DNA of 64,000 nucleotides. Source: Isurus oxyrinchus. Taxonomy: Eukaryota. The DNA is taken from contig JANJGN010000131.1 of assembly GCA_026770705.1 (NCBI GenBank), positions 310,001 to 374,000 of the forward strand. Reading direction: 5' to 3'. The stretch's first letter is position 1. Each line of letters starts with the position of its first letter. Below are positions 913 to 64,000 of the stretch, one piece after another. The notes under the pieces are model-generated. The model was given only the letters and a program-made list of their open reading frames with translations. It was not told the origin of the DNA and did no database searches. Position numbers and translations under genes: made by a program.

Positions 913-3900
913 ATTTCACTCTATACTTTCCCCCGCCACCGCCACCCCCACCAAAAAAAATCTCCCACTTAGCCCGCCAGCCCCCCTCACCCCACACCCC
1001 ACACTTTGAAATGACATGCTTCAGTTACTGCTGCAGCAAGAGGAGGCCTTTGGATCACCTAAGGGTGTCACAACACTGATGGAAGCCCTTAAAGCTTTAG
1101 TCTGTTTCTCTCTTCACAAAGGTAGCGAGGGCTGCTGATTATTCCCACATTTCACTTTTTTATTTCAGTTCTGAGCACATTGGCTCCCCCCCTCTCTCTC
1201 CTCTCCTGAACATACTTTTTCCAGATGTGTTCAGGGGGACATTTAAATTGACGAATTTCACTGAGACATAATTTGTGCAGTGGAAATAAACCTTTATTTG
1301 AAACGAGGAGACTCCCCACTCCGAGGTTTTGGGACTGGAATAAATACTGGAATAAAATCACAGAAAGATTTTGAAAAGCTGACATCACTGACCTTTGAAC
1401 CTCTGAAAACCACCCTGCCATCTGCAGGTTAGTCCAAAATGTTTTGAACAAGGTTTCCCTGGGATACTGGAGACACTGCAGCATGTCCGCCCCTGGACTG
1501 TAACCTGCCCGATTGACCTTGTCCTCAAAGCCCCCTTTGTGTAATGACATGAAACTCGAGCCTGGTGGGTGGGAATTTCTCAAACCAGTCCCAAGGCGAA
1601 CCGGACAGTTGCAATAGACAGAAAACCAGCAGGACAAACAGGACTTAGGTAAATTACTTCCCAAATGCAGCGTTTCTGTTAGTCACTAAATCCTGGCGGT
1701 GAAAGATGGAAACCAGCCTCACCCTGTGCTCATCACCGAGATGAAGAGATTGGGAAACAAACAGGTTAAACTCATATTGAAAATGGAAATTCTTCTCACT
1801 GTTTAATAAATTTAACAATTACAGAAAAGGGATATTTCACCACATTCTTCAGCTCCTTTCTGAATTGAGTCTGGGTCACTGCATAAATAGCCGTGTTGGT
1901 GCAACAACTCAGGAGCTGAAACATAAACCCCAGTTCGTGCACAAATTTAGGAAGATTTTCAGGAATAGCATCTAACTAATATGGCCGATTACAAGCAGAA
2001 TAGATCATAAAGATTGCCCACAACAGGATAAAATTCCCCGATATAGCAAACAGTAAAATGATGGATTTCCTGCGTTTCTCCATCTCTGGGTCACTGGCAT
2101 TCTCCCCACTGCAGTGAACCCGGAGTCTCCTGCGGGCTGTGCTCGACACTTAAATATATCTGACAGTTAAAGCATTCAACACCAAAATAAAAACAAATGA
2201 TGCAAATAGAGTTAAAATATAATGAAAAAATTCGATTGCTGCCCACATTGACGAAAGATCAGCTCCAGTCACTAATGTGCAAAACCAAGGAGCGTTGGAA
2301 ATTGCATACTGACCTTCATACATAAAGTACCAGCAAGTGCTCTTCACACAGAACAGCAGACTGACTGTTCTGAGAACCACAGCCGCCGTATGCTCGGTGC
2401 AATAATTTGTTTAAAACTTGTGGGAATAATTGGCCAGAAATCTATTAAAGGGGAAAGAGTCTGTGAACCAGACAGAATAATCTGTGGCTGCATAAAGCAG
2501 GACTGCATGGATATTACACACTGTAATCCTCCATATGAACTGAAACTGAGCCCAGCAACGAATAGCAATTTGCCTGAATATGAGATCAAGGATAACAACG
2601 AGTAGATCCGCAGTTGTCATGGACACCAGGTAACGGGAAACACTTTTTCACAGACCGCACCTTCCCCGAGACCGGGTCACAATAGTCAATAAGTTCACTG
2701 TAAGGAAGAGAAAGACAGGAAATTTACTGATTAACTTAGAGCAACTTTTGCAGACTGAAATTTGAAGAGTTATCCTAGGTCAGAATCTAATTACTATACC
2801 AGTGTTTGAACTTTCCGCTGAAGGGAGGGTTTCAAGTTAAACACCATCCTGTTGTAACAGGAAACCAAATGCAGCAGCAGGTCCCAGCGCCATTTCCTGA
2901 CCTTATTCATGGGGTTCGGAGTGAAAATCAGTCACCCCATTACTAGTCCTGCTCAATATCCCATGAACATGCTCCAAACTGCACGCACGAACATTGGAAA
3001 ATCATTTATAGGATGGGCTATGATTTGTACTGAAGGAAAATGGTTCATTTTTTATTTGACAAGACAGCTGAGTGGAATAATAAGGCTGTGTAAAGAAGTA
3101 AATACAGATTTGAATTCATTCATAAATTGTCCTTCAAATCAGGATATCCGAATGTGTCTTCCTGATAATTATTGCTCTCCCAAAAGCCACAATGAACCCT
3201 GAGACTGTATCCCAGTAACACACACACTCTCGAAAAGAACAAACGAAGAGGTTAGGTAAATGGATCGCTAAAGTGAAGAAAATAAATTAGAGATTGAATC
3301 AGAACTGGATACTGGCCAAGAGAAAGGAGCAGCGGAGAGTGACAGCATCCCAAATTCAGGTTGGTAAGCAGGAGAGATTTTACCAATGGATCGGATGTGT
3401 GTGTTTTGGACCAGGAACTAAATGGGCCAGTGGTTGGGATTTGAGGTTGTTACATAGGAATGCAGGAACTAGGAGCAAGAGCAAGCCAATTGTTCCCTAC
3501 GGCCAAGTCTAATGTAGACTAAGCCTATGGCCTTTTTTCGACCTCTACTTTTTAACACTGTCCTCATTTACATTGATGGCCTTAGAGCCCAAAGATCTAT
3601 CGACCACTTTCTTGACTGTATCGAAACCAACAGCCCTATAGATTTGATAATGCCAAAGATTCTCCACTTTCTGAGAGAACAAGATTCTCCCCATCTCAAT
3701 CCTAAATGGCCAACAGCTTATTCTCAGGCTATGGGTTCGAGTTCTGGACTCCCCAGCTAAGGGAAACATTCTCTCAGCATTTACCCAATGAGGAGACTAA
3801 ATCATTTTCTATGACTCGATGAGATAATCACCCATCCTCTAACTTAAAGAAAATGCACGTCTAATTTGATTGATTGATTGATTGATTAGATACGTATATT

Positions 3901-4034
3901 GTTCAGTAGGCAAGGAGACCGAAACTGTAAACATTAATCCATATGGTTTCTCAACAATCACATGCATAATTCTATGAACAGGTTCCTTACTCGAAGACAG
4001 GGAGCACTGCCATTTATTATCCTAATCACTTGCT

Positions 4035-5245
4035 GCAATATTGTATCCTATCCTCATTACAGCTTTGCTTCAAACATGGACAAAAGAGCTGAACTCCCGA
4101 GGGGAGATGAGAGTGGCTGCCCTTGACATCAAGGCAGCATTTGGCACAGTGTAGCATCAAGGGGCCCTAGAAAACCGTGAGTCAATGGGAATCAGGGGGG
4201 AAATATCTGCTGCTTCTAACCATACCTAGCACAATGGGAGATGGTTGTGGTTGTCGGAGGTCTGTCATCTCAGCTCTAGCAATTCACTGCAGGTTTTCTT
4301 TAGGGTAGTGTTCTCGGTCCAACATGTTCAGCTGCTTCATCAATGACCTTCCTTCCATCATATGGTCAGAAGTGGCATGTTCGCTGATGATTGCACAATG
4401 TTAAGTAGCATTAACGACTCCTCAGGTACTGAAGCAGCCCATGTCCAAATGCAGCAAGACCTGGACAATACAAAGGCTTGCACGGACAAGTGGCAAGTAA
4501 TATGTTCACCGCTCAATTGTCGGGCAATGTCCATCTCCAACAAGGGAGAACCCAATCATCGCCCTTTGTCATTCAATGGCATTCCCATCAATGAATCCCC
4601 AGTATCAAACCCTGGGGTTTACCATTGACCAGAAACGGAAGTGAATGAGCCATCTAAATACTATGGCTACAAGAGCAGGTCAGAGGCTAGGAATAGTGCA
4701 ATGCGTAACTCACCTCCTGATTCTCCACAGCCTGTCCACCATCTGCAAGGCACAAGTCAGGAGTGTGGTGGAATGCTCCTCGCTTGATTGAATGGGTGCA
4801 GCATCCAAAGCACTCAAGAAGCTTGACACCATTCAGGGCAATCGTTGGATTGGCAGCACACCCAAAAACATTCACTCCCTCCACCACCATCGCACAGTAG
4901 CAGCAGTGTGTACCATCTACAAGATGAACTGCAGGAAATCACCAAGGCTCCTTCGGCTGCACATTTCAAACCCTGACCACTGCCATCTAGAAAGACACAA
5001 TCAGCAGACAGATGTGAACACCGCCAGATTCCCCTCCAAGTCACTCGCCTTCCTGACTTGGAATTATATCGCCATTCCTTCACTATTGCTGGGCCAAAAT
5101 CCTGGAAATCCTTTCCGAACAGCACTTTGTGTGCACATACACCACATGGACTGTAGCAGTTCAAGAAGGCAGATCACCACCGCCTTTTCAAGGGCAACTA
5201 GTGATATGTAATAAATGTTGGCCCAGCCAACGAAGCCCATTTCAC
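4035..5245 (+). mobile_element. LINE (CR1/L2-type) 5'-truncated RT and 3' end within the GPCR intron
   Basis: AALDIKAAF, SGMFADDCT, NIHSLHHHRTVAAVCTIYKMNC, ending in an AT-rich tail (gaataataataaaa). Confidence 0.85.
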
Positions 5246-6259
5246 ATGATTGGATAATAATAAAATATATTGCATGTTAGCTTTCTCTAGTTTGTGTACC
5301 TGAGCACCCAAGTTATGAAAATTTACAATTACAGGTGTCTCACCTGTTGAAACGCTGGATGAGGATAGAATGCAACTCGTCTGTGTTACTATCTCAGGGA
5401 AACTAAAGATTATTGTGCAATATTAACACAGGACAGTGATGTGTGTGTAAATTAACACGAAAGATAATTCATAAAATTAATGGTCCTGGCCTCCCATTTG
5501 GTGGTGATACTCGGATGATCAGCGCTGATTGTAAATATAATTAAAGCCTTATTTTTTTCCACCCTTGCGGCATGTTTTGCTTGCCCACGTAGTGGGGTGG
5601 GGGAGATGAGGTGTGCATGAGGTGCGAGGATGTCGGGGTGGTTAGTAGTTGTTTTGGGGATGGGCGAGTAGTTAACGGGCTTTGCAGTCGGTTGGGGGCG
5701 AATGGATGGGCGATGGCTAGTGAGAGGTGTGCAATTGGGTCGAGGCGAAGGCAATCGGGTCAGATTGCGCATTCTGGGGTCAGTAGTTGGGGGGGTGATG
5801 TGGTTTTTTTTGTGTGGGCTGAATGTGGGAGGTCTGTGCGTGGGGGTTGGGCGTGCATGGGCTGCGCCCCACAGTTATTCACTGACACATGCTAGAAATT
5901 AACACCTGGAAAATTCTAGGGCAAGCATGTGTCACACAGCAGGCACAAGAGTCCAAAACTGAAGTCAGTTTTGTGGTCATTGTCAGAGGGGCCCGGGTAG
6001 TACCGATATGCGTATCAGAAGTTTAAAGTTCGCAGGTAATTACCATGCATGCTCCTGGATCAAGACTTTTGATTGGTCCTGATGTGCAGAGCGGCAGACA
6101 TTTCAATATTTACCACTGTTGGCATCGGGCGATCCAGGTTAATGATGCAATCAGAATCAAATTCACCGCAATGGACTCCAGACACCAGCTTCAGATAGAG
6201 GGAAATTACAAAAGAGGGAAATGGCGACCAGGTCAAAGAAGGCTGGCGAAGTGGGAATA

Positions 6260-7310
6260 ACAAAAAAGAACACATGTTAAGAATTATCTTAAAGGATGAT
6301 AAGTTTGTAGCGAGGACAACAGATTTAGGAGGTAATTCAGAACATGAAAGTCTTAATATTTCACTGTGGCCACCCATGCCAACGGCTGCAGACATGTCGA
6401 GAAGAGGAAGGAGAGGGGTTTTGACATTAGTATAGTCACATAAGATAGAATTTGTGCCTTTGCTAAGGACGGTGTAAGAGTTGTAATAAGGGAGAAAAAT
6501 GGTTAGAAGGATTTAAGCATGATGTCCCTGGAAGGTGGGGCGGGTAGCAGCAGGAACAAGGAATTTGCAGAGGAAAGAGAGGTTAGAGATGGAGTGTTTG
6601 CTTACATGGACTGAGGCATCAGGGGTTGTTTATTTACAAGAGCAGGGGTGATGGCTACAGATTGGAGCAGGAGAAGAACAGTGGCTAAGCAGATGGAACT
6701 AATAACTGTATCAGCAACTGAGGAACATGTTGAAGAAGTTCGCTGTTCAGCAGTTTGGTGGGAGTGCACTGAACCAGTCCCCACCAGCAGCCACCCCCCA
6801 GCCCAACCCCTACAGCACACCTTCCACCAAACCAATCAAAAGCTTGGAAATCTCACACATGAAAAATGATGGAACGCTCACTACTCATGGGGATGGGTAT
6901 CACAGCAACACACAATAAGCAGAATCACCTTCAAAAATGGAATAGATTTTCCATCAGTGACCGTTCATCATTAAACTCGATATTTCACCGCCTCCACCTT
7001 TGTGGATACAGGGAGAGTCTCTACATAATCAACAACAACAAAACACCGGGCCTACTTCGACAGCACGTACCAGCACAGCATCATGCAGAAGGTGTGCAAT
7101 GCCGCAAGATTCACCTTCTCTAACGCACCATCCTGACTTGGACCAATAACCTCTCCCTTCATCAGAGTTCTGGAATTCCATAATACCAGATAGGAGCACC
7201 GTCAGCAGAGGGAATAGTTCAGCTCAGCAAGAAGACCCAGCAACAGCTTCTCAGCTCACCTCCAGATGGGTAATAAACGGAACTTTGTCACAAGCATCCA
7301 TTTCCAAGGA
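6260..7310. mobile_element. Older degenerate LINE fragments in the GPCR intron
   Basis: 6830-7300 resembles the LINE 3' end seen at 4.7-5.2 kb; both pieces recur inverted at 58.9-59.9 kb. Confidence 0.5.
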
Positions 7311-8358
7311 ACACATTTTGAAAATAAAAACCTGTGGGAGGGGGATAATGACTTACATCTCTGAATAAAGTAATGCAGAGACAAGGGAAGGAAATTAGGT
7401 CTGTGGGCAGAAATGGGAACGGAGCCAATTGTTGGTGAGGGGAGCAAGTATTGTTGAACAATTATTACATTTTGTACCCTGTCCTAAAAATATAGATTTT
7501 GTGACTGTTAGGCAAAGCGGGAAATGGTGGAATACAAGTTGTTTGGAGCTGAATCATTCTTGGAGATTCTCTCTTGTTCCTGCCTGCTCTGATTGCCACA
7601 GATCAGTGCAAATTACAACCTCCATCAGACAGCAAAACCAATACCTGCAAAATATATTTCGTCTGTGATATTGGGTTTCAGTTCAAAGAGCAGACTGCAG
7701 CTGTTCAATATCTATAATCCATCGCTGATATTTATTGCATTTAATATTCAACCAGCCAAATTATGCAGAAAAAAATCAATTGAAGCAAGTCGTGAGATAT
7801 AAAAACGGTCCATGGAACAGGGAACAGGAAATCGACAACTGGTGAAATGCTACTTGACAGAAACGTAAGGAATTACATGCCACACGACGCAAAAATTACA
7901 AACAATAAATTAATTAGCTCGCATAAAGCACAAAGACAGCAAACACAGTGAAAGATGTTTTATAAAATACATTTCTAAAATAATCACTCACCAGGAATAC
8001 CAACAGCAGCGAGGAGTGGTTAGTAAATCCTTTGTAAATTATAAATTACCCAAAGGATCCGACGTTCAGCTGGAATATTCCAAAACATGATCTCATTTTC
8101 TGTGAGATCTAATGATCGCCTTTAATATTGGGGGCCACTATACTCTTTCAAGCACTGATGTACACAGTGAACACATTGCCTAGATGTAGGCAGAGAAGAG
8201 TCTCCAGTGATTCAATTTAACCATACACTGGCTGACATTAAGTACAGTCACTTAGCAAACAAGATGCCTTAACCCTTTCATTCCATCAATTTCTATGGAA
8301 AAATATAATAAAAACAACATGGCATTCCTGTCAAGATAATTCATTCAAAGCAACCACA

Positions 8359-8366
8359 TGACGTCA
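8359..8366. promoter_or_regulatory. CRE palindrome TGACGTCA upstream of GPCR copy A
   Basis: Perfect TGACGTCA about 270 bp upstream of the ATG; conserved in the inverted copy at 57806-57813. Confidence 0.5.
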
Positions 8367-8974
8367 GCCACTTTCGTGAGAAACAGATTATGGAATCTTG
8401 CAGGCTTGCAGCACACCTTGAGAAATAAGTAGATTCAAATCCAGAGTTCTGATTGTTTTGGTGATAAAAATTCTGCCCAGCAATTTCACGTTATCAATTC
8501 ATTTCTCAGGCGATGAACATAAAACAAGTCCCAGGGGATGGTCAGAAGCAGTAACAGTCCTAAAGGATGTATGGTTGATGATCATCTCGTGATCAGAAAG
8601 TAAAAAGTGAACTGATAATTTGAAACTTATGTCTGGTCTAACACTAAACGTATAAGTGATACCTCCGAGTGACACATATTATGGAAATGATAAAACAGTT
8701 TAACTTGAAAACTGGCCTTGCAAATGATACCCCGGTGTAACAAAAACCATGTAATTGAAATCCATGGAATATTAGTGCCCATGTAGAAAATGGACAATCT
8801 AAATTGACCTTGTGCCTGACACCACAGACTTACAGTGATCACGTAACTGATACCTGGTCGCACAGTGCTCGTTTAAATGATACCGAAATCCAGCAGTGGG
8901 TGTTTTACAGATACTGTCATCAAACGGTTACCATGGGATTAAAACCTGATGTTCTGCTGGCCTTGTATCCGACA

Positions 8975-9310
8975 CTCCGATCTAACAGTGACCTTGTAAC
9001 CAATGTCCCGATCCACAATTTACCTTCTACAAGCAGTCTGTTCTAATCGCCACCTTGTAACTGATAATCCAGCCTAACAGTGACCTTGTAATTGTTATCA
9101 TGATTTAACATTGGCCATGTACTTGATAGTCCAGTCCAGCAGTGACATTTTAACTGATAATTGAATCTAACAGTGACTTTGTACCGGATGTCCCAATTTA
9201 ACCCTGATCATTTATTTGAGGCTCTGGCTGACAATGACCTTGTGACTGATATCCCAGTTTAATAGTGACTTTTTACCCGATCCTACGGCCTGAAATTGAC
9301 CTTTTGTTAC
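8975..9310. repeat. Degenerate minisatellite (~31-bp unit)
   Basis: Recurrent taacagtgaccttgtaactgata.tcc; inverted counterpart at ~56980-57200. Confidence 0.75.
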
Positions 9311-9869
9311 GTTAGTGTCATTGTTCAGATGTGTTTTTTTCAATGTAATCTTTAGTTTTGGAAATTAGAGATTTAACTGATGGCAGTGGGTACATCTGGT
9401 GACGAAACTGGCAAATGCAGCCCTAAATTTAATGCAATGGAAACAGCCTTGGTGTTTATTATTCTTAGAAAGCTGGAGCCATGTTGACTTAAGATTTAAC
9501 AGCCAGGAAGTTAAGGCCTTCATAATGCAGGTGGTCTTAATTAAATAAGGAACAGGAACAGGACGTCTGCAGTTATTCCAATGAATTAAAAGCTATTTAC
9601 GTGGTTTACCAGAATTAAGGAAAGTTTTGGAATTAACGGATAATTATTTTGCCATTCTACATGGTAACAGACCATGTGTGTCATGTTTATGTGAAGATAT
9701 CTGGAGCTCAGTTGAGAGTTTAGAAAAAGATGGAGTGCAAAAATATATTTGTGATCAAAATTCGGTTCAAGTTCGCGGTGTTTGCTTCAAGAATTAAAAC
9801 TTTTGTCAGCTGTAGAGATTTCATACTCTCTCAAACACATGGCCTCACAGTCACACAAATGCAAGTGGG

Positions 9870-11790
9870 TGTGTGCACACACATACACACACACACACAC
9901 ACACACATATATACACAACAGATACAAATGCAGATATACACAACCCCATAAGCAGACTCATGCAGGACATGTAAACATATACATGAATATGTTCATTACT
10001 ATGCTTCAACGAACAGAAAAATATAGATCTAAAGACACACTATCATGCACAATAATGCAAATACATAGGCATTTCCATACACACATTAACAAATTGACAC
10101 ACGGGCACTTAGATGAACAGGCAATAGCATTTTCACACACACTGAACAAGAAACGAAGATGATTATATTCACACACCCACAATAACACAAACACATAGAA
10201 ACACACATTTTAGTACACATGGACAACTAAACAGACATAAACACATAGTTATAAACATCCATCAACACATAAAGGCACGCCGTAACATATTCACACGCTC
10301 ATGCAGGCAAAATTATTAACATAGCAAACAGAGAATCTAAAAAGTCATAATGTCAGATACATTAACAAGCAAGGACGGAATCAAACGCAAAAATAGCTGG
10401 AAAACTCCACAGGTCTGACAGCATCTGCGGAGAGGATCACAGTTAACATTTCAAGTCCGCATGAATCTTCATCAGAATTAAGGAAAAATAGAAATGAGGT
10501 GAAATATAAACTGGTTGAAGGGGTTGGGACAGGTAGAGCTGGATAGAGGGCCAGTGATAGGTGGAGGCAAAGAAGAGATTGACAAAGATGTCATAGGCAA
10601 AAGGACAAATGAATGTTAACGGTGGTGATGTTAGCAAAGGAACATGCTAATGGTGATATTAAGGGTAGAAAGCAGGACGAGCAAGTGACAGATAGCCTCC
10701 GTGGGACTGTGGTGGGGGGAAGTGATCGAAATAGGCTAAAAGGTGGAGGTAAAACAATGAGTGGACATTAAATTAAAAGTATTATAAATAGGTGGAAAAA
10801 GAAAAGCATATTAAAAAATATTTTTTTAAATTATAAAGTATTGCAAATATTGGACTATACGCAGACACCGGTCTGTCTGCCAGCATGACTCAGACCTCCT
10901 GGTCACTTGCCATTTCAACACACCACCCTGCTATCATGCCCACATGTCCGTCCTTGGCCTGCTGCAATGTTCTGGGAATGTCAACGCAAACTGGAGGAAC
11001 AGCACCTCATCTTCTGATTAGGCACTTTACCGACTTCCAGACTTAACATTGATTTCAACAACTTCAGATCATCAATTTTCTCCTCCATCCCCACCCCCTT
11101 TCCGATCCCCTATTTCCAAAAATTTATAATTTTTAAAATATGATTTTTTAAATATATTTTCCTTTCCCCACCTATTTCAATTATTTTTAAATTGATTTCC
11201 ATTCATTTTTCTTCACCTTTTAGCCTATTTCGGTTTCTTCCCCCCACCGCAACCCCATCACATTTCCACCATCAACACCCCTTTATCCTTTACTCGTTGA
11301 CATCATTGGAAATCTCTTCTTTGCCACCACCTATCACAGGCCCTCTATCCAGCTCTACCTATCCCACCCTCCTCAACCAACTTATATTTCACCTCATTTC
11401 TATTTTTCCTCAGTTCTGATGAAGAGTCATCCGGACTCGTAACATTAGCTCTATTCCCCTCCGCAGATGATGTCAGACCTGCTGAGTTTTTGCAGCTATT
11501 GTTGTTTTTGTTTCAGATTTACAGCATCCACAGTATTTTGCTTTTATGGACGTAAACAAACTCTTTGACACAGGCGTTAATAAGTGAACATAAACATCAA
11601 CGCAGAAACAGGCACACTGATACACAAACATTTACAAATGAACAAACAAACATACACAGGTGCGCCACACATAATTAAGCATATCAACATTCATTCCACA
11701 TCAACACACACATCAACATTCATACAACATGGCACACAAACACAGTTAAATGCAGAGCACGAGACACCCCTGCACGCTATACGCAAATAT
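9870..11790. repeat. Degenerate (CA)-rich tract split by a Penelope-like insertion
   Basis: CA/ACAC-rich sequence at 9870-10330 and 11560-11790. Confidence 0.7.
10385..11547 (+). mobile_element. Penelope-like element relic with inverted terminal (pseudo-LTR) repeats
   Basis: 10390-10850 is the reverse complement of ~11100-11510; the middle encodes QRKLEEQHLIF*LGTL..RLNIDFNNFR, typical of the C-terminus of the Penelope GIY-YIG ORF. Confidence 0.75.
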
Positions 11791-12379
11791 ATATTTGAAA
11801 AAAAACAATTGCCAGACGGAAGTCTTTTTCAAGTGTCCTTTTTTAGCGGGCACATCTTCCAAAAATTTCTGGGAGCACATAAAGACCCAGGAAACACACT
11901 GAAGCAATGTTCTGAATTATAAACTGATTTAAGTTAACTATGTGCCAAACATTACTACCACAAATAAATAAACAAGTTGAAAATTTACAGAGTTCAGAAT
12001 CTCAGAATTAATAGCGATCAGTACCTACCATTAAAATAATTGTTATCAATTATTAAACGTCCTGCAATTTACTGCATAATATAATCCAATGATAGGCCGC
12101 ACGAAATTGATCCAAATGAACTGGTACCGAAGGGGGAAAAGACAGTTTGTTTCCAATACGGGCAGGATGAGGAAAGTAAAGTGAGAACAGCTGTGGGGTT
12201 AGTGACAGGCAGAGATTGCTGAGAGTCGCCAATTTATTACCAGATATGCACTGAAAATGTAATGAGAAGACAAATCAATAGTTTGAGGGAAATACAATAG
12301 ATTTAATATATATTTTAAAAAGTAAGATGCCCTTGGATTCTAACAATGTAATTAAATTTCCTCGGTTATATTCCTGTAG

Positions 12380-12656
12380 ATTCCACAGAACGCATGTGGA
12401 TTGAAGACAATGAGGACGATAACGGGAACGTCTGCACAACAGCTTCCACCTCCATTGCCCTGTTCGTCCTGAGCATTTTCTACAGAACTGCCGTCACTCT
12501 GGTGAATGTGAGAAAATTGAATTTACTAACACGACAATCTGACAGAAGCGGTTTGAAAACTTTCTTAATGTTTCAACGATTAAGATCTATGACATAAATG
12601 CACCAGTTCATAAACATCTGCTTCATTATATTCTCCCTCTTTTACAGATCAAGTGA
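12380..12656 (+). pseudogene. IGHM: Orphan immunoglobulin heavy-chain (IgM-like) membrane exons TM1 (12380-12507) and TM2 (12648-12656)
   Basis: Acceptor ttcctgtag, then (D)STERMWIEDNEDDNGNVCTTASTSIALFVLSIFYRTAVTLVN|gtgaga, then tttacag|ATC AAG TGA. Matches the IgH TM consensus (N.WTTASTFI.LF.LS.FYS.AVTL.KVK) with W>C, F>S and K>N changes; no CH exon recognised upstream. Isotype (IgM vs IgW) is by recognition only. Confidence 0.88.
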
Positions 12657-13041
12657 TCGGTTGAATTTCGGACCCCGTAGCTTTTCCTTTAATTCCAATT
12701 TAAAATATGTTCTCTTGGTCACTGTAAAAGTGAAATGTTCTCACTTTGTAATTCCGGATCTGTAACCGAACCTGCCATAGAATTTCCGTTTGTCTGTTTG
12801 AAATGTGCGAGGTGTTAATGGTCGTAATGAAACTGAAGCATCTAATTTCCATGGACTTAGAATTCCATTTGTCTTTAATTAACTTTTCTCGTTCTGTTTT
12901 CACTATTGTTCCCTTCCCTTTCTGTTGAGCCGCTGTTTTCTCTTTCTGATCTATGTTTCCGTGGTACATACGGTTTACCAACTCAGAGTGCATGTTCCCA
13001 ATGTGACGCTCAGGCATTATATTCACGTCTGTTAACCATAA

Positions 13042-13047
13042 AATAAA
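13042..13047 (+). terminator. Polyadenylation signal of the IgH TM2 3' UTR
   Basis: AATAAA about 390 bp after the TM2 stop. Confidence 0.55.
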
Positions 13048-14114
13048 CTTTCATGTAAAATATTCTCTGAAATTGCTAATGAATGTGGAATGAAAAGTGA
13101 ACTAACTATGGCTTTGCTGAATTCCTTTTTCTGCGGTCCATCGACACTGCTCCATTTTCCCTATTACACATTTCTCCCTATTTCACCAGTCCTGTCTGGG
13201 ATCTATTTGCCCAGAAGGCCCCAATGGGCCACCCATCGCCCCTTCCGTGCAAAGGGACCTTTACCTCTGTCTGTTTCTGGCATTTGCCTGAGGTGGAATG
13301 ATTGAACAGGGAGGGTCACCTCTGTGATTTGACTCATACTCTGGGCGGTCACAGTCACATGTCAGGTAATTTTATACAGTAGCGTTCGGCTTCATCAGAG
13401 GCTGACGCATGACAGGATGTTGGATCAGAAATCTTCCTTTACACTGCCCTAGCCAACACTCCCACGGTTGGTACAGTCAGGGTCATAACAGGGTTAAGAT
13501 CCCTCTGCATTGTCCAATTAAACACTTTGAAGGCAGGGGTGCCGCTGGCTAGATATATAACACAGTCATAATTGGGAGCATTAACCAAGGGGCGATTCCA
13601 GAGACTCGAACGTGTCTGGCACTGATATATGATCGAGTGAAAATCCTGTAAATTATTAAAGAGCTTTAGGTCTCTTGCACACACCAGGGGGACAAAACCG
13701 CGAAAATGTCCAAAGACGGGGTTCCACGTGATACAGCAAGTAAACATAAACATGGGGCTTGTTCCTTGATCCTGGGGCCTATCGAATACTGAGACACTGG
13801 CTTCGAAGTATTTCTTAAATACACAAACAGGCATTACTCGCACCCCACCAAACCAACGCCTTCTTGTTAAGAATATATACGGTCCACATTCCGGTAAATA
13901 CACACTGACTGTCCACTTCCAACTTTTCTTTTAAATCCATTAGCCCTGTCATCCTCCCTTTTCCTTCGATTGTGAACTGTTTCCTGATCAGCTCATTCCT
14001 ACTGATACCATCTCTCTGTTGTCACTGAGCATAACCCCAGGGATCCTCTCTGCCTGCTCCAATCCTTCTGATACAATCTCCCTGAACTAAATGAACATCA
14101 CCCCACGGTTACGT

Positions 14115-14850
14115 AAATACAGAAAATGCTGCAAAAACTCAGCAGGCGGACAGCACCTGTGGAAGAAGGAATAGAGTTGACGTTTCGAGTCTGTCTGATG
14201 AAACGTTATAGCTTTGTTTCTGTCTCCACAGATGCTGTCAGACCTGCAGAGTTTTCTGTGTTTCTTTCAGATTTCCAGCATCTGCAGTTTTATTCGTTTA
14301 TCACCCTCGGGTTTTGTTCCTTCTGCTTCATTGCTTTTTCAGTGGTTCCTTCAGCGCCTCCCAATCATGGGAATATCAGGAGAAGTTCTCTTCTCGACCT
14401 AATATCTTCCAACATTTTCTCTAAAATCTCAGAGTTCACGGGCGAGGTTCCTTGTTGTTGAAAGTAGGAAGAGTGAGGCAGGGAAAAATTACCGACGCGT
14501 CTTAAAGACTCGGAATGCTGTTTGTTAATCGGTGAAGTTACTGTTAAAGCCTTTATCTCTCCCAATCTGACTCCCATCCTCTTCCACACTACCGTTCAGG
14601 ACATTTCAAACAACAACAGAAAAGGCAATAAAAGCTCAGCAGGTCTGACAGCATCTGCGAAGGAAAAGACAGAGTTAATATTTCGAGTCCGTATGACTCT
14701 TCTTCAGAGTCTTCTTCTCTGAAGAAAAGTCATACGGATTTGAAGCGTTAATTCTGCCTTTCTGTCCACAGATGCTGTTAGACGTGCTGCGTTTTTCCAG
14801 CATTTTCTGTCTGTGTTCCAGATTTCCTGCATCCGCAGTATTTTGCTTTT
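14115..14850. mobile_element. Two short palindromic Penelope-terminus relics (~14115-14300, ~14605-14850)
   Basis: ctcagcaggtctgacagcatctg... followed by its reverse complement cagatgctgtcagacctgc...; same motif as the termini of the 10.4-11.5 kb element. Confidence 0.7.
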
Positions 14851-15384
14851 ACCGTTCAGGATATCTCTCCACTGTTAGCTGCATTTATTTTTAGCCACCA
14901 CCGTTGTGCTCCTGTGTTTCTCTGTCCTTTCCCAGTCTCGGAAACACTCAATGGACGCACGGCCCCAATAAGATGCCAAGAACTCACTCCCACGGGCCAC
15001 AGTCCTCAGTCAGGAGTCACAGGCGGAACAAACTTTCCCGCTGAGTGGGGGCTGTGGACGGCTCGCTGCTGAATCAGTGCGGGAAATTATCAATTACGGT
15101 CGATATATGTTACGGTTCAATGAATGTTGAAATTGAGTGGCTATTTTAATGAGAACGGAAGTCATCTTTTCATTCAATTGAAACGCTCTTTTTAATAAAC
15201 AGCAGGCACGAGCAGTGTATGACTTCACAATAACATGGCCTTCGTCGATTGGTCCTGCAGCAAATGATGTCACAATTTTTCCAACACGTCACTGCACCGT
15301 GATTGGTTCTTGTTCCATTAAAGTCGGCTGTGCATGAGTTCATTATTCTTACTCTGGATATTCCAAGATGCTTTTCGACCGTCA

Positions 15385-15910
15385 CCCTGCACCTTATGAG
15401 ACAATGATCGCTGTCTCCTTGATGTTCCCCGCTGACACTTGATCTACCTGTCTAACCTCATTTGCAAGAGCCAGGTCTAGCAGTGCCTCCTTTCCTGTTG
15501 TACCGGACACATACTGCTATACAACATTCTCCTGAACACAATCGAGGAGCTCTTGCCCTTCTCTGTCCTTTATACTGCGAGTATCCCAGTCTATATTCCG
15601 GTAATTAAAGTGCCCTATTATTAGTATTCTTTCATCATTGCACCTCTGTGTTTACCCTGCAGAATTGTTCCATTACATCCTTCCTACTGGCAGACGGACG
15701 ACAGACAACACCTTGCACTTAATGGCACATTTTTCCCCCGTAGATCTCGCCAAATTGATTCTGTCCTTCAACCTTCTTGGACATCCTCTTTCTGCAGCAC
15801 TGCAATGCTCTCCTTAACCAATACCGTCACCCCCGTCCTTTTCTTCCTGCATAATCTTTACTGCACGCATTGTACAGAGGAATATTTAGCATCCAGTCCT
15901 AAACTTCCTT
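15385..15910 (-). mobile_element. CR1 LINE APE-endonuclease fragment
   Basis: Minus strand reads IIGHFNYRNIDW...ELLDCVQEN..QYV..TRKEALLDLALANEVRQVDQVSAGEHQGDSDH. Confidence 0.8.
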
Positions 15911-27700: not shown

Positions 27701-27704
27701 TGTG

Positions 27705-47323: not shown

Positions 47324-47773
47324 AGCGTCAATACGCAGTAATACATAGGCTGCGTCAGAGAGCTGCAGTTTGGAGAATTTTAAGGTAATGATGGTATTCG
47401 TAGTGACCAGTACAGACGAGAAAAGACTTCGAGCAGAATGTGCTCTCATTTGGCAACCAGCCGAAACCCTGCGAAGTAGAATTTGTGATTCTTTGTCCGG
47501 GTGTTGCAGGACCCAGAATAAGCTGAAGGAACCTTTGGTACTGAAATAGATGCAGTCTGAAATTGTAATGCCTCCTTTTGTCCAAACCACTGTCAGCAGG
47601 CGTTGTGTCACAGAGATTTCCTGAGTCAGGCCAGCTTTAAATGGAAAATGCAAAAGCTATCCCATTTATAAAGTGCTGTTACGTTTGGTTCAAAATTACT
47701 ACCAAGAATACTTATCCGTGATAAGTGCTCCAAATACGGCACCGAAAAAGAGTAAGCGCACTGCCGCTTTCAT
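47324..47773 (-). pseudogene. TCR alpha/delta-type V pseudogene (V2): leader 47773-47716, V exon 47634-47324
   Basis: Leader MKAAVRLLFFGAVFGALIT with mutated donor (G|ataagt); V exon ISVTQ..SDC..SLFWVLQHPDKESQILLRR..LKFSKLQLSDAA then a +1 frameshift before MYYCVL. Confidence 0.88.
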
Positions 47774-50337: not shown

Positions 50338-50376
50338 AGTTTTTGTACCAGTGGTAAGGGTTTATGTAACGTGGTG
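50338..50376 (-). other. Degenerate RSS of V3
   Basis: Near-consensus nonamer ACAAAAACT (50346-50338); at 23-bp spacing the heptamer reads CACCACG. Confidence 0.65.
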
Positions 50377-50684
50377 CTTCATAGCCGCGCAGTTATACAC
50401 GGATCAGTCAGAGAGCTGGGTGTCTGTGATGTTCAAAGGGATGTTTGTGTTGCTCCTATCCTGTACGGCTGAAAAGCGCTTTGCAAACGCTGGTGCATTC
50501 TCTTCATTCCCAGCCGTGTGTCTGAGCAGCACATACTGAAGGCCTTTTCCCGAGTACTGTACGTACCAGAATAGGTAAGCAGCTGTGTATGTCGCTGGGT
50601 AGATACATGACAACACCACAGTATCACCTTCACTCACTGCTACAATTGAGGGTGTTTGGGAAAGTCTCTCCTGTTGGCCGTATT
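50377..50684 (-). pseudogene. TCR alpha/delta-type V pseudogene (V3) V exon
   Basis: Acceptor ttttccag; LSQTPSIVAVSEGDTVVLSC..YLFWYVQYSGKGLQYVLLR..KRFSA..LNITDTQLSD*SVYNCAAM; in-frame TGA at 50404-50406; leader exon not confidently located (candidates near 51.04-51.17 kb). Confidence 0.9.
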
Positions 50685-53383
50685 CTGGAAAACAATAACA
50701 GAATGTTATCAATGCAACTTTTAGATTTTTTTCATTTGGACGAAATAGGCTTTCCAATGCACACGCACACGCGCACACACACGAGCTCACGTTAAATCAT
50801 TCCCTTCAATACAACGGTTGACTGCATTTCGAGTGTGAAGACAACAACAAAAACAGGGAGCTTCAGCGATTTCACCCCTCAGTTAACTGATCCCAGGCCA
50901 TCATCGGTGTAATTTCCTTCTGGCAGTGTTCAGCCAAGGCTACCGTTTCTGCTGGAAATAGAGAAGCCCTTCTCCGGCCCACTGAGACAATGACAGGTCA
51001 GCTTGTGACTAATTTAGATACTGTACGAACACTCACTGACCAGTGAGCGAAGCCAAGGAAGCTGACCTCACCAATGGAGTGAAGAAAAATTGGAGGAAAA
51101 ATAACAATACAGTTAACAAAATAAAAGCGTTACAATCGCATGAAATACTTACTTGGTTGAACATTTATGAGGAAAAGGAACACTTTGACGAATATTATTC
51201 TTGTCCAGGAGACACACTGGCGATCAGAAGACATGTTGAAGTTGTATCCTGTGTCAGAATTCCATGCTGTACGGAAGTATGTGATGTATATTCAAGACAT
51301 TTGTTACATCCTACCACCACGTTTAGCTGCACATGAGTATGGCTCCGAGATTTATAAACAACACAAAAATTGCAAATGGAAGTTTCCTCAGTTTGATGTC
51401 TTCCAGCAGCCGATAGGTGCGATGCTGGCAGGGGTGGGGCAGACAAACAAAGGCAACGAATCAAAATTTTTAAAAATCCAAATTCATATCTATAGCCCGG
51501 CCTCAATATCGAGGTACATCAATGGCATTTGTTATTTAATAGACACAATTGATCTTTAATATTTCATTGACTCCAATAAATGCTGTTCCTTACCAGATGC
51601 AAGTTGTGTGATGGACACCAATGTAACATTGGTGTCATGGACACTCATACAACAATCAACACAGCGCATTGTTATTCAATGCAGAAAGAATACACTTTGG
51701 TTTTTGTTCGGACAGAACTTGAGTATTTCTGAAAAAGAGACAGGTCTCAGCTTATCACCCTGCACTCATCAGGAAACTCGCAAGAATAAAAATACATGGG
51801 AGGGGGGAGCACAATTTATACTGTATATGAGGAGAAAGATGATTGGTTGGCAAGTGGCATTTCCCTGAATAATGCACCACCTATGGCGAAGGACAGTTAA
51901 CTGCCAAGAATTGTTTGAAATTTAAGCCAGACAGCTTGACCCTGATAGGTTCAGGCTGACTCGTTTCTCATGATGATGAAGAAGAAGACAAAGAAGATGA
52001 AGATGATATTGCTGATCTGACTGGTTTGCTCTCCGGAGGTCCGGCAAAGACTGTGTATGTCGAATGCCTCCCTCCCCGCCCCCACCACTCCGCCCCCCCC
52101 CCCCAACCCCGCCACCACAGCGCCCCCCTCCCCTCCTTTCCGGCTCCGTGCGGTAATGAGACTGGTGAGTCTGGTTGCACCAATCTATGGCAGAGCTACT
52201 CAGCCCCAGTTAGGTGGACCAAAACTGAGCACAGTTCTCCAAATGTGTTGTTAGCAAAATCTTATATATTTGCAGCAAAGCTTCGTTACACTCCTTATCC
52301 AAACCTCTTGCGACGGCTTCACAAACACTGTTGATTAGTCTTTGTTATTAACCAGTTTGAACTGAGAAAAAAAAACATAAAGACATTGTTCTCCTGCATA
52401 TTTTTGGCTCTTCCCTTTCTCTCTGTACGTATTTAATTCGAAGACTGACAGAGAGCTATAGATACAAAATGGCAACTCAAAAAACACTATGTTCCTCCGA
52501 GTACCGAATCAAAAGTGAGGGATGGATTTAGTCTTCATTGTATTGAATCGGAGCTAATCCATTGCACAGCTATGAATTCCATGTCAGAGCAATAATCGAT
52601 CTAGAAACAAACCTGGCCTAATTAACCAGAGTGAGAGCGAGAATATTCATCACACAGAGAGATCAAGGCGAGCAAATGAGAAAAAAAAGAGTTAAGGATA
52701 GAGACAGAGTCAATAGACAGAGATAAATTGAAGGAGAGTCCTAGACAAGGGAAAGGGAAACAGGCATAGAAACTGACAATTAGTGGAAAGAAGCTGTACA
52801 TTCATTTCACAATTCCATCTCATTATTCATTCATAGTTACTGGGAGACAGCACCTTCTGAAATTATATAAAGTCCTTCAATAGTTCAGAGTGTCTCAGGT
52901 TGCTTAACGACAAGGGCGTATATAGTGAAGAATAGTCACTCCTTTAATCTAGTGATAGAGTTAGAGGAAAATACAGAATCTGTTTAAATAACATCTTAGG
53001 AAAGAGATATAAACGTGATTTTTTCTTTCCATGTATTTACGATGCTTGATGAAGATCCAGGAGATGTAAAGGTCTTTTGAATTTTCAACTTCTGCTCTGT
53101 TAAAATTTCACTCGTACAGCATGAAATTCACAGAAATTTGGAACAAGGAATCAGGCCTCTAAGCATTCTCCAATCAATAAGATGTTTAATTTTTTATGTT
53201 CTAAAAGCGCAAGGAGAAGTTAAGGAAGTTAAACAATTGTAATGAAATCCTTTGAATGATTATAACTGCTGCAAGCTGGAGCGGTCGTTGGATACCCGCT
53301 TCTTAGTTTATTGTCAGAGAAACCAACGGATCTATGATCAAAGGTAATTAACCGCTCTCAGTTACTCTCAGGCAGCATAAGTC

Positions 53384-57957: not shown

Positions 57958-60900
57958 TTGAATCACCAGGACTGTCCTCCGCCTATATCTAGGCAATGTT
58001 TTCAATGTGTATATCAGTGTTTGACAGAGTGTGGTCGCCAGTATAAACAGCGATCATTGGATCTCACAGCAAATGAGATCCTGTTCTTTGAAATTCCAAC
58101 TGAACTTCGGATTGTCTGGGTGATTTATGATTTGCAAAGGATTTACTATCCGCTCCTCGCTGCTGTTGGCATTCCTGGTGAGTGATTATTTTAGAAACTT
58201 ATTTTATAAAACATCTTTCACCATGTTTGTTGTGCTTGCCCTTAACGTGAGTTAATTAATTTTATTCTCTGTAATTCTTGTGTCCTGTGACATGTAATGC
58301 CCTGTGCTTCTGTGAAGTAGCATTTCAGCAGTTGCTGATTCACTGTTCACAGTTCATTGGACCGTTTGTATATCTCAAGACTTGCTTCAAGTGATTTTTT
58401 TCTTCAGAATTTGGCTGGTGAAATATTTTACGCAATAAATATTAGTGATGAATTATAGCTATTGAACAGCTGCAGTCTGCTGTTTGAACTGAACCCCAAT
58501 AACTGAGCAGAATATGTTGCGCAGGTATTGGTTTTGCAGTGTGATGCAGATAGTAATTTGCACTGATCTGCGGAAATTAGGGCAGACAGGAACGAGGGAA
58601 GATCTCACATAATGATTCAGCTCCAGGCAAATTCCTCTCCACCATCTCCCGCTTTGCCTAACAATAACCAAATTTAGATATTTAGGAGAGAATTTAAAAT
58701 GTAATAATTGTTCAACAGTATTTGCTCCCCTCACCAACAATTGGCTCCGTTCCCATTTCTGTCCACAGACCTAATTTCCTTCCCGTGTCTCTGCATGACG
58801 TTGTTTAGAGCTGCAAATCATTATCCCCCTCCCAAGGTTTTTTTTTATTTTCAAAATGCGTCCTTGGGAAATGGATGCTTGTGACAAACTTCCATTTATT
58901 ACCCATCTGGAAGTGAGCTGAGAAGTTGGTGCTGAGTCTTCTTGCTGAGCTGAAGTATTCCCTCTGCTGACTGTGCTCCTACCTGCTGTTAGGGAATTCC
59001 GGAACGCTGATGAAGGGAGAGGTTACCGTTCCAAGTCAGGATGGTGCGTTAGAGAAGGTGAATCTCACAGCATTGCACACCTTCTGCATTTTGCTGTCCT
59101 GGTACGTGCTGTCGAAGTAGCCCTGGTGTGTTGTTGTAGTTGATTCTGTAGACATTCTTCCTGCATCCACAGAGGTGGAGGAGGAGAAATAGCAAGTTTA
59201 ATGATGGACGGACACTGATGGAAAATCTATTCCATTATTGAAGGTGATTCTGCTTATTGGGTGTTGCTCTGATAACCATACTGAGGAGTAGTGAGCGTTC
59301 CATTATGTTTCAGGTGTGAGATTTCCAGGCGTTTGATTGGTCTGGTGGGAGGCATGGTGTAGGGTATGGGCGGAGGGGTGGCTGCTGGAGGGGACTGGTT
59401 CAGCGTACTCCCACCAAACTGCTGAACACCGAACTTCCTCATCATGTTACTCAGTTGCTGATATAGTTAATAGTTCCATCTGCTTAGCCACTGTTCTTTG
59501 CTGCTCCATTCTGTAGTCATTACCCCTGCCCTTGTAAATAAGCAACCCCTGTTGCCTCAGTCCTTGTAAGCAAACACTCCATCTCTAACCTCTCTTACCT
59601 CTACAAATTCCTTGTCCCTGCTGCTAACCCCCACGTTTCTGCCCCCCCTTCCAGGGACACCATGCTTAAATCTTTCTAACCATTTTTCTGCCTTATTACA
59701 ACTCTTACACCGTCCTTAGCAAAGGCACAAATTATATCTTATGCGACTCTGCTAATGTCGAGCTGCCTCTCTTCCCTTTTCTCGACATGTCTGTGGCCTT
59801 TGGCATGGGTGACCACAATGAAATATTAAGAGTTTCATGTTCTGAATTTCCTCCTAAATCCTTTGTCCTCGCTACAAACTTATCATCCTTTAAGATAATT
59901 CTTAAAATGTGTTCTTTATTGTTATTCACCCTAAGCCAGCCTTCTTTGACCTGATCTCCATTTCGCTTTTGTGTAATTTCCCTCTATCTGCAGCTGGTGT
60001 CTGGAGTCCATTGTCGTGAAATTAATACTGACTATATCATTAACCAGAGCTCCTGATGCCAACAGTGGTGAATATTGAAATGTCTGCCGCTCTGCATATC
60101 AGGATCCATCTGAAATCTTGATCCAGGAGCATGCATGGTAATTTCCCATGAACTTTAAACTTCAGATGGGCAGATTTGTACTGCCCAGGCCCCTCTAACA
60201 ATGACTCCAATACTGACTTTAGTGTTGGACTGTTGTGCCTGTTGTGTGACAGATGCTTGGCGTAGTATTTTCCCGCTATTAATTTCTAGCATGTGTCAGT
60301 GAATAACTTTCAAGCGAAGCCCATGCATGCCCAACCCCCACCTACAGAACTCCCACATTCATCCCACACACAACAGCCCACAACACCCCCAACTACTGAC
60401 CCCAGAATACCTAATCTGACTCGATTGCCTTCCCCTCGATCCACTTGCACAGCTTTCACTAGCCATCGCCCGTCCATTCAACCCTCAACCGACTGCAAAG
60501 CACGTTAACTACTCACCCATCCCCATCCCAACTGCTGACAACCCGCCATCTACGCACCTCATACACAGCTCATCTCTCCCACCCCGCTACGTAGGCAAGA
60601 AAAACAAGCTGCAACGGTGGAAAAAGATAGGGCTTTAATTATATTTACAATCAGCGCTGATTATCCGAGTATCGCCACCAAATAGGCGGCCAGGACCATT
60701 AATTTTATGAATTATCTTACGTGTTAATTTACACACGCATCAAAGCCCTGTGTTAATATTGCACCAGAATCTTCAGTTTCCCTGAGATAATAACACAGAC
60801 GAGTTTCATTCTATCCTCATCCAGTGTTTAAACAGGCGAGAAACTGGTAAAAATTGTAAATTTTCATAATTTGGGTGCTCGGGTACACAATCTAGAGAAA

Positions 60901-63900
60901 GCGAACATGCAATATGTGTTATTATTATCCATTCATGGGAAATGGGCTTCGTTGGCTGGGCCAGAATTTATTACCCAACACTAGTTGCCTTTGTGAAGGT
61001 GGTGCTGAGCTGCCTTCTTGAACTGCTACAGTCTTCGGGGTGTAGGCGCACCCAGAGTGCTGTTCTGAAGGGAATTCCAGGATTTTGGCCCAGCGACAGT
61101 GAAGGAACGCCGATATATTTCCAGGTCAAAATGGTGAGTGACTTGAAGGGGAACTTCCGTTTGGTGGTGTTCACATCTGGCTGCTCCCCTTCTCCTTCTA
61201 GATGGTAGTGGTCGGGGTTTGAACGTGCAGCTGAAAGAATCTTGATGAGTTCCTGCAGTGCATCTTGTAGATGGCACCCACTGGTGCTACTATGCAACAG
61301 TGGTGGAGTGTGTAAATATTTTTGAATGTGCTACCAATCCAGCGAGGTGCATTGCCCTGAATTGTGTCAAGCTTCTTGAGCGTTCTTGGAGCTGCACCCA
61401 TCCAAGTAAGCGAGGAGCATTCCACTACACTCCTGACTTGTGCCTTGCAGATGGTGGACAGGCTTTGGCGGTGAGGAAGTGAGTTACACGTCGCACTATT
61501 CCTTGCCTCTAATCTGCTCTTGTAGCCATAGTATTTATATGGCTCGTTCAGTTCCATTTCTGGTCAATGGTAAACCCCAGGATTTGATAGTGGGGGATTC
61601 AGTGATGTTAATGACATTGAATGACAAAGAGCGATGGTTGGTTTCTCCCTTGTTGGAGATGGTCAATGCCTGACACTTGAGTGGTGCGCAAGATACTTGC
61701 CACATGTCAGTGCAAGCCTGGTAATTGTGCAGCTCTTGCTGCATTTGAGCATGGGCTACTTCAGTACCTGAGGAGTCGTTAATGGCGCTGAACGTTGTGA
61801 AATCAGTAGCGAACATCCCACTTCTGACTGCGTGATGGAAGGAAGGTCATTGATGAAGCAGCTGAAGATGGTTGGGCCGAGAACAGTACCCTGAAGGAAT
61901 GCTGCAGTGAAGTCCTAGCGCTGAGATGATCGACCCCCAACAAACACAACCATCATCCTTTCTGCTAGGTATGGTTCGAAGCAGCAGAGATTTCCCCCCT
62001 GATTCCCATTGACTCCAGGTTTGCTAGGGGCCCTTGATGCCACACTCTGCCAAATGTTGCCTTGATGTCAAGGGCAGCCGCTCTCACCTCCCCCCGGGAG
62101 TTCAGCTCTTTTTTCCATGTTTGAAACAAAGCTGTAATGAGGTTAGGATACAGCAATATAGCAAGTGAATAGGATAATAAATGGCATTCTTCCCTCTATT
62201 CGAGTAAGGAACTTCTGATAGAATTATGCATGTGATTGGTGAGAAAACATATCGATTAATGTATACAGTTTTGGCCTTCTTGCCTAAGGAAAAATATACT
62301 TAAGTAATCAATCAGTCAATCAAATTTGACATGCATCTTCTTAAATTTAGAGGATGTGTGATTATCTCATCGAGTCATAGAAAATAATTTAGTGTCCTCA
62401 TAGCATGGATGCTGAGAGAATGTTTCCCTTAGGTGGGGAGTCGAGAACTCGATCCCTGAGATAAAATGTTGGCCATTTGGAATTGAGATGAAGAGAATCT
62501 TCTTCACTCAGAAAGTGGAGAAACGTCCGAATTATCAACTCTAGAGGGATGTTGGTCGGTAGATTTTTGTGCTCTAAGGCCATTAAGATAAATGTTGATA
62601 GTTTTGGATGGTAGAAGTCGAAGAACGGTCATGGGCTTAGCGAACATTAGAGTTGACCAAAGGGAAATATGGCTTGCTCTTGCTCCTAGTTCTTGCATTC
62701 TTATGTAACAACTTCATTTCCCAACCATTGGCCCATTTAATTCCTGTCCCAAAACACAGACATTAGATCCATTGGTAAATTCTCTCCTGCTTGCCAGCCT
62801 GAATTTTGGGTGCTGCCACTCTCTGCTGTTCCTTCGTGTTGGCCAGAATCCAGCTCTGATTCAATCTCTAATCTATTTTCTTCAGTCTAGCGATCCATTT
62901 ACCTCCCTGTTCTTTATTTATTTTCGAGAGTCTATTTGTTACTGGGATACAGTCTGAGCGTTCATTGTGCCTTTTGGCAAAGGCAATAATTATCAGGAAG
63001 GCACATTTGGACATCCTGATTTGAAATACAATTTCTGAATTTAAATCTGTATTTACTTCTTTACACAACCTTAATGTTCCACTCAAATGTCTTCTCAAAA
63101 ATAAATGAACCATTTTCCTTCAGTACAAATCATAGCCCAACATATCGTTGTGATGCAGTTTGCAGCATTTTCATGGGATATTGAGCAGGACTAGTAATGG
63201 GGTGAGTGATTTTCACTCCGAATTCCATGAATAATTTAGGGAAGTGGCGATGGGACCTGCTGCAGGATTTGTTTTCCTGCTACAACAGGATGGTGTTTAA
63301 CTCGAAACACTCCCTCCAGCATAAAGCTCAAACACTGGTAAAGTAATTAGATTCTGACCTTGGATAACTCTGTTCAAATGTCACTCCATCAGTCTGTAAC
63401 AGTTGCTCTAAGTTAAACAATAGCTATCCTGCCTTTCTCTTCCTTACAGTGAACATACTGACTATTGTGACCCTGTCTCGGGGAAAGTGCGGTCTCTCAA
63501 AATGTGTTTCCCTTTACCTGGTGTCCATGGCAACCGCGGATCTACTGGTCGTTATCCTTGATCTCATATTCAGGCAAATTGCTATTCTTTACTGGGCTCA
63601 GTTTCAGTTCATGTGGAGGTTTAAAGTGTGTAATATCCATGCAGTCCTGCTTTATTCAGCCACAGATTGTTCTGTCTGGTTCACAGTCTCTTTCACCTTT
63701 GATAGATTTCTGGCTATTTGTTCCCAGAAGTTGAAAACAAAATATTGCACCCAGCATACGGCGGCTGTGGTTCTCGGAACAGTCAGTCTGCTATTCTGTG
63801 TGAAGGATACATTCTGGTACTTTATGTATGTAGGTCAATATTCGCTTTCCAATGCTCCTTGGTTTTGCACATTAGTGACGGATGCTGAATTCTCATCAAT

Positions 63901-64000
63901 GTGGGCAGCAATCGAATGTCTTCATTATATTTTAACACCATTTGCGCCATTTGTTTTGATTTTGATGTTGAACGCTTTAACTGTCAGATATATTTTAGTG
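57958..64000 (+). CDS. GPR139-like GPCR (copy B), exon 1 ending 58177 and exon 2 from 63450 to beyond the window
   Basis: Exon 1 ...ELRIVWVIYDLQRIYYPLLAAVGIP G|gtgagt; acceptor cttccttacag; exon 2 open to the window end (NILTIVTLSRGKCGLSKCVSLYLVSMATADLLV..FTFDRFLAICSQKLKTKYCT..LNALTVRYILV); no in-frame ATG in exon 1, so the start is uncertain. Confidence 0.8.
60935..62150 (-). mobile_element. LINE RT fragment, duplicate of 4035-5245
   Basis: EVRAAALDIKATFGRVWHQG, KKLDTIQG, IYKMHCRNS; same intronic position as in copy A. Confidence 0.85.

Follow-up and report, generated by a model that had tools for sequence, protein, structure and literature searches.

Arrays of olfactory receptor genes sit beside mammalian immune loci, and orphon V segments have been carried away from their J and C segments by segmental duplication. 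In elasmobranchs, one chromosome carries an antigen-receptor complex, termed the AgRC, in which TCR alpha/delta V exons alternate with clusters and pseudogenes of IgM (Flajnik et al., 2025, PMC12227049). Among class A receptors, GPR139 needs F109, H187, W241 and N271 for activation by Trp/Phe (PMC5430874), and GPR210A and GPR210B are orphans placed beside GPR139/142 in coelacanth, gar and fishes by Rinne et al. (2019, PMC6504862).

Here we describe a stretch of 64,000 nucleotides of Isurus oxyrinchus (G000:C131:310001-374000 in the 4.98 Gb assembly; “the window” hereafter), in which a first-pass annotation had seen an expanded GPR139/142-like receptor family interleaved with immunoglobulin and TCR pieces and duplicating together with them. 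Our census of the window gave five GPR139-like loci (A–E), three TCR-type V segments (V1–V3) and one IgM transmembrane (TM) exon, and the window is one of about 30 copies of a segmentally duplicated block. In this block orphan class A receptor genes have been duplicated along with damaged TCR V segments and an IgM tail that is likewise an orphan, and these immune pieces are probably passengers. The features are as follows, in coordinates of the window.

1796-8088, minus strand: receptor A, exon 2 at 1796..2697 and exon 1 at 7992..8088
1796..2697, minus strand: receptor A exon 2, pseudogene with four in-frame stops and NRF for DRF
7992..8088, minus strand: receptor A exon 1, with ATG, one in-frame stop and a phase-1 donor after GIP
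9828..14158, plus strand: remnant of an IgM cluster (3′ end), its V and constant exons missing, 77-80% to the corresponding end of a whole cluster on C38
12380..12507, plus strand: orphan IgM TM1 exon, 79% protein identity to the whole-cluster exon
12648..12656, plus strand: IgM TM2 mini-exon, two residues and a stop
16798..16867, plus strand: receptor B exon 1, with ATG and a phase-1 donor after GVP
18939..19835, plus strand: receptor B exon 2, pseudogene with frameshifts near both ends
24386..24813, plus strand: second IgM remnant, 3′ flank only, TM exon absent
32794..33704, minus strand: receptor C exon 2, interrupted by a single premature stop (32953-32955)
34951..35029, minus strand: receptor C exon 1, with ATG and a phase-1 donor after GIP
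39229..39383, minus strand: receptor D, a 50-residue exon 2 fragment
41852..42170, minus strand: V1, open frame, canonical heptamer, 22 bp spacer
47285..47773, minus strand: V2 pseudogene, without its leader donor and frameshifted ahead of the second cysteine
50338..50860, minus strand: V3, TCR-alpha-like pseudogene, leader without ATG and with a stop
58081..58177, plus strand: receptor E exon 1, start codon lost in the window
63450..64000, plus strand: receptor E exon 2, continuing past the window to C131:374348
1..41588: part of the block with an inverted copy at C131:402272-444511, 92-96% identity
9964..52346, plus strand: section of the block to which an older copy at C26:5.92-5.96 Mb is collinear, about 79-88%

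All five receptors, found where the first-pass annotation had placed five GPR139/142-like loci, are broken in the window, and sister copies are partly open. Exon 2 of receptor C is open in 29 of 30 fetched copies. Receptor E keeps its start codon in all 13 of the other copies displayed, and its exon 2, here cut short by a stop in helix 7 a little past the window's edge, is open in 16 of 20 other fetched copies. The two-exon layout with a phase-1 intron after G(V/I)P, which had been ascribed to every locus, was recovered in A, B, C and E, but no exon 1 was found for D; likewise the DRF motif is present in B, C and E, but A reads NRF and D lacks the region. That the loci fall into at least two subfamilies was borne out, yet along another line than the proposed A/B versus C/D/E, with A+E set against B+C+D. 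A and E form an inverted pair of one subfamily with 84% DNA identity, and B and C make up the second in quick trees; D, which was excluded from the tree set, is placed with B/C by its exon start only.

The three TCR-type V segments are present as annotated, each with a recombination signal in which 22-23 bp separate heptamer and nonamer. A functional TCR V gene has an ATG leader, an open V exon and a canonical 23-RSS. This combination is lost in V2 and in V3, the window copy of which has a stop in the V exon and a non-canonical heptamer; V1 has the open frame and the RSS, yet its domain is shortened and a clear split leader is absent. The best unfused matches of V3 include many TCR alpha chains. 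Those of V1 are light chains with weak scores, so V1 and V2 are called “TCR-type” because of their signals and the segments around them. All 15 J-pattern matches lie on C242, as the single J-alpha-type cluster of the genome and on a separate contig from that of the window. These 15 matches, at C242:669-694 kb, form the sole grouping of J segments that combine a 12-RSS with the FGxG pattern, and no TCR-alpha constant exon was found within the 30 kb of C242 examined. C131 may nevertheless belong to the same chromosome as this J cluster.

As for IgH TM exons, which had been reported in the plural, one IgM-type exon stands (12380-12507) but the second remnant has none, while the older copy of that remnant on C26 retains its TM exon. 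The orphan TM1 exon has several conserved residues altered. A functional IgM cluster would have V-D-J and four constant exons upstream of TM, and the remnant in the window has lost these; no C1-set (constant) exon was found in C131:210-474 kb, the 264 kb around the window, with the same C1 profile that recovered whole IgM clusters on C38 and C26. To the right of the window, an additional IgM TM exon adjoins receptor E (C131:379429-379554), and this E-TM pair mirrors the A-TM pair as an older inverted duplication (80-85%) within the block.

Two further items of the first-pass annotation, IgSF exons and a ZNF relic, were not recovered. None of 294 additional ORFs reached a Pfam cut-off (294 of the 410 listed ORFs were searched, plus 24 others separately), and the best zinc-finger match was 10 residues at 31328 with an E value of 0.19; neither further IgSF exons nor zinc fingers were found in the window by Pfam and local V, C1 and zinc-finger profiles. 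Real zinc-finger arrays lie at least 43 kb upstream of the window. C2H2 arrays occur at C131:215-267 kb (32 motifs) and C38:9.18-9.25 Mb (41 motifs), flanking the block and an IgM cluster, respectively, and are absent from seven other scanned regions. What was first taken for IgSF exons is possibly a local duplicate of about 850 bp (38326-39161 and 40203-41060, 81% identity). Its 95-residue plus-strand frame, which has no Pfam match, is uninterrupted in both copies, as it is in their two counterparts within the inverted block, but carries stops in the C26 copies. Decayed LINE-like repeats at 4046-5267, 27054-27699 and 60922-62148 are common to many other regions.

Genomic matches to the parts of the block number 30 for V3 (at least 88%), 27 for E, 38 for C (at least 90%) and 31 for the TM exon (at least 95%), the last count leaving out nine rows at 90-91% that were taken as whole-cluster type. 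V3 and E lie 12-14.5 kb apart on opposite strands in 19 of the 30 V3 copies (19 of 27 from E's side), and the TM exon and C lie 19-24 kb apart in 27 of the 31 TM copies (27 of 38 from C's side). Because this spacing is fixed across copies, the arrangement exceeds chance. The copies are 90-100% identical. Within C131, the inverted copy of the first 41.6 kb of the window starts about 30 kb to the right, and in the older copy on C26 the TM exon, B, C, D and V1-V3 follow in identical order; between 23 and 40 Mb, C26 also bears clusters of IgM genes along with large arrays of V segments. Thus, of the proposed module of receptors and antigen-receptor genes in joint birth-and-death, the joint copying and the birth-and-death of the receptors stand, but its antigen-receptor parts are dead fragments. 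Elsewhere, C26:0.69-0.81 Mb and C38:13.29-13.41 Mb match each other at a constant offset along some 120 kb, which ties the two contigs together through either a common duplication or an overlap in the assembly.

Database searches with the receptor family returned 2107 proteins, of which the best 120 come from sharks and rays and nearly all carry the automatic name “probable GPR139.” Against solved structures the family profile found human GPR139 best with 63.6 bits, the next scoring 40; GPR142 of Isurus oxyrinchus scores 303 bits, against the 63.6 bits of the family profile for human GPR139. A PDB search with a single sequence was uninformative (GPR139 at 23.7 bits, below 5-HT1A), and a Pfam Srw search gave mostly galanin-type receptors, though GPR142 was reached through it. 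The true GPR139 and GPR142 were located as single genes on C15 and C22, separate from the family, and this GPR142 has 99% identity with its Carcharodon carcharias counterpart and carries the phase-1 intron of the family at the same position in helix 1. Orthologues of GPR139 or GPR142 would be expected in single copy; searches with two of the subfamilies gave at least 150 matches each.

In quick trees, supported by SH-aLRT only and with GPR139 represented by the Isurus oxyrinchus gene alone, GPR139 and GPR142 join with a support of 99, and the shark family joins a salamander gene with a support of 100, apart from them and also apart from a clade of single-copy genes that spans coelacanth, fishes, amphibians, turtles and catshark. 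The phylogeny with GPR139/142 therefore sets the receptors in a clade of their own, and the label of an expanded GPR139/142 family is to be dropped. Having GPR139 as nearest characterized relative and the phase-1 intron in helix 1, the family belongs to the wider GPR139/142/210 group, and judging from sequence the receptors are probably a separate clade of the GPR210-type expanded in sharks and rays. None of 42 family rows keeps all four residues for Trp/Phe activation, some keeping three, and the sites vary by subfamily; both shark orthologues, GPR139 and GPR142, keep all four.

The course of events that we favor is as follows. The block would have arisen in the shark antigen-receptor complex, the long home of two receptor subclades, and would have spread by repeated, partly inverted duplication. 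After duplication the copies would die one by one, as all five in the window seem to have done, while selection would keep some receptor frames open. Such open copies may, as G-protein-coupled receptors, sense peptides or small molecules in pockets that differ from one subfamily to the next, and the receptors would adjoin antigen-receptor genes because both occupy the same unstable DNA. The family is large, undergoes birth-and-death and has a variable pocket, as a chemosensory repertoire does, and by analogy with other large receptor families the open receptors are most likely a repertoire of this type, a role that seems about twice as likely as one in leukocytes. Against our explanation stand the open frame and canonical heptamer of V1, and some copies may be haplotype duplicates of the assembly.

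The location of the family has to be weighed next. A total of 119 matches to the salamander protein, drawn from 5958 first-look candidates, were scored, and 62 of them lie on IgH/TCR or module contigs, which are estimated at less than about 2% of the assembly, with the other 57 on contigs without IgH/TCR evidence. On a tree of 42 loci, all 18 sampled from the IgM/TCR region fall into two clades that hold none of the 24 loci from elsewhere, and the location labels change 2 times versus 14 in shuffles. These resident subclades are old, with relatives in Stegostoma, Chiloscyllium, Heptranchias, Heterodontus and Pristiophorus. Such crowding and such age count against our explanation, as an accidental neighborhood would not require them. 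An open receptor lies at C26:35.26-35.46 Mb amid about 25 TCR-type V segments, some of which we take to be NAR-TCR-like, and between two IgM constant regions; another receptor lies 57 kb from the whole IgM cluster on C38. Close relatives of the C26 receptor recur on C26, C140, C152, C210 and C301, which suggests a second, larger repeated unit.

On these grounds, the subclades resident in the IgM/TCR region could be lymphocyte or leukocyte receptors kept there by shared enhancers or open chromatin, with amplification raising their dose. The two exclusive clades, the open receptors amid the V and IgM genes of C26 and near the C38 cluster, and the IgM 3′ flank retained in the block all speak for this alternative, which we nevertheless regard as unlikely, as local duplication alone predicts clades by place, and no receptor was found in two light-chain regions of 60 kb each or in 30 kb at the J cluster on C242. 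In addition, the bamboo shark relative of a C26 gene lies on a sequence of 13,660,452 bp that corresponds to chr45, whereas the TCR-alpha V and IgH genes of that species are on chr44 in an assembly whose small chromosomes may be split (PMC7677710). The accessible part of an axolotl TCR paper names no such receptor gene (PMC12529555).

A repertoire linked to the TCR/Ig locus, as first proposed, thus holds for the two subclades but not for the family members elsewhere. Neither V nor C1 domains were found in six 100 kb arrays (C110, C34, C35, C39, C32 and C29) holding 27 receptor loci, and since about half of the sample lies elsewhere and these arrays lack Ig, the link is an enrichment of two subclades and is not family-wide. 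Family members also occur at C21:96.4-96.5 Mb, on a contig with an MHC-class-II-like C1 exon at 80.9 Mb (labeled by a look at its sequence), and a probable tandem repeat at C32:4.085-4.100 Mb has frames of great length that are open in several phases and match zf-C2HC weakly. A bolder scenario, in which sharks and rays have hundreds to thousands of GPR210-type receptors and two old subclades, resident in the antigen-receptor complex since early elasmobranchs and expressed in lymphocytes, would drive the amplification of IgM/TCR-bearing blocks and sense ligands as a germline-encoded repertoire next to the rearranging receptors, we hold to be quite improbable.

Returning to the explanation by copied receptors with immune passengers, the fate of the open frames was followed by comparing variants, each site being scored a single time relative to a majority reference, with the mutation spectrum seen in neighboring non-coding sequence, in the copies best by score (30 of 38 for C, 20 of 27 for E and 26 of 30 for V3). 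For C, 94 synonymous and 115 non-synonymous variants gave an omega of 0.49 (p 4e-7), with a stop in 1 of 30 copies and a frameshift in none, which shows purifying selection on receptor C, the control being imperfect as the synonymous count was 1.43 times the intron-based expectation. For E, 42 synonymous and 97 non-synonymous variants gave an omega of 0.89 (p 0.29), no different from neutral, and this result speaks against our explanation; stop variants numbered 0 versus 7.3 expected, and four copies share frameshifts. V3, with 14 synonymous and 41 non-synonymous variants (omega 1.28), 3 stop variants versus 3.7 expected, and leaders that lack ATG and run into a stop in 17 of 17 copies displayed, evolves neutrally and its leader is dead. 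These tests are rough, because the copies are related and were picked by score, which favors intact ones, and because of the synonymous excess in C. They supersede earlier dN/dS values of 0.41 for C, 0.60 for E and 0.23 for V3, obtained from 16, 10 and 6 copies, respectively, and the low V3 value disappeared with 26 copies. With V3 neutral and its leader dead, no constant exon in the 264 kb and J segments on C242 only, the immune pieces look like passengers, and the V segments and IgM tail of the block are likely just that.

The same counts bear on a further alternative, that the block is neutral amplified DNA whose open frames are merely young and most of whose copies were never used. The five broken copies of the window, the neutral-like omega of E and the 90-100% identity among copies fit such a view, and so does the near absence of close matches among RNA-like contigs (their tissue and species match being uncertain), only 3 of 343 having at least 95% identity to the stretch from C to V3. 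Family matches among these putative RNA contigs are short, about 80-87%, with no joint across the intron, and bear on expression neither way. We consider this alternative rather improbable, given the omega of C, the deficit of stops in C and E versus the expected number in V3, and a family maintained across 2107 matching proteins, the best 120 of them from sharks and rays. Finally, that the copy number is largely an assembly artefact of uncollapsed haplotypes or false duplication is very hard to believe, for although small contigs carry many of the copies, C76, C101 and C387 hardly differ from one another and a collinear stretch is common to C26 and C38, single contigs (C38, C42 and C131) hold many copies, 2-10% divergent and differing in orientation, and stops and frameshifts are specific to individual copies.

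A little-studied family, partly resident in the shark antigen-receptor region, has been masked by the name “probable GPR139.” Were this family sensory, it would fill a large gap in what is known of shark chemosensation, and if the subclades of the IgM/TCR region were leukocyte receptors, they would be a new gene class in the oldest antigen-receptor complex. The public nurse shark RNA set of 20 tissues allows a direct choice between these readings. How V segments as orphans, and fragments of IgM, multiply in shark genomes is also visible in the block, and this affects Ig and TCR gene counts. Neither the expansion of these receptors in sharks nor their residence in the AgRC was found in the literature covered, subscription papers and bioRxiv supplements lying outside its scope.

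Compared with known systems, C26 of Isurus oxyrinchus has the same interleaving as the AgRC, so far as the article could be consulted; its accessible text and supplements mention no GPR/GPCR genes and no amplified unit in which receptors are joined to orphan V segments and an IgM tail (PMC12227049). The interleaving of IgM and TCR V genes is thus already published. Receptor arrays next to immune loci, and V segments that have become orphans, are familiar phenomena as well. GPR139 and GPR142, class A receptors for L-Trp/L-Phe (PDB 7VUG, 9M42), share the two-exon layout and the phase-1 intron with the shark family, which differs from them in having mostly DRF for DRY, hundreds of copies and a different clade. 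For GPR210A/B, comparable clades adjoin the shark family in our tree, where coelacanth and fish relatives were found that are not tied by Ensembl id to the proteins of Rinne et al.; in its accessible part that study includes no shark and no expansion (PMC6504862), while the shark expansion groups with a salamander gene. The mammalian olfactory arrays beside TRA/TRD and MHC are likewise birth-and-death class A receptors near antigen-receptor genes, whereas the shark receptors belong to a different family, have an intron and are interleaved with the immune genes rather than only flanking them.
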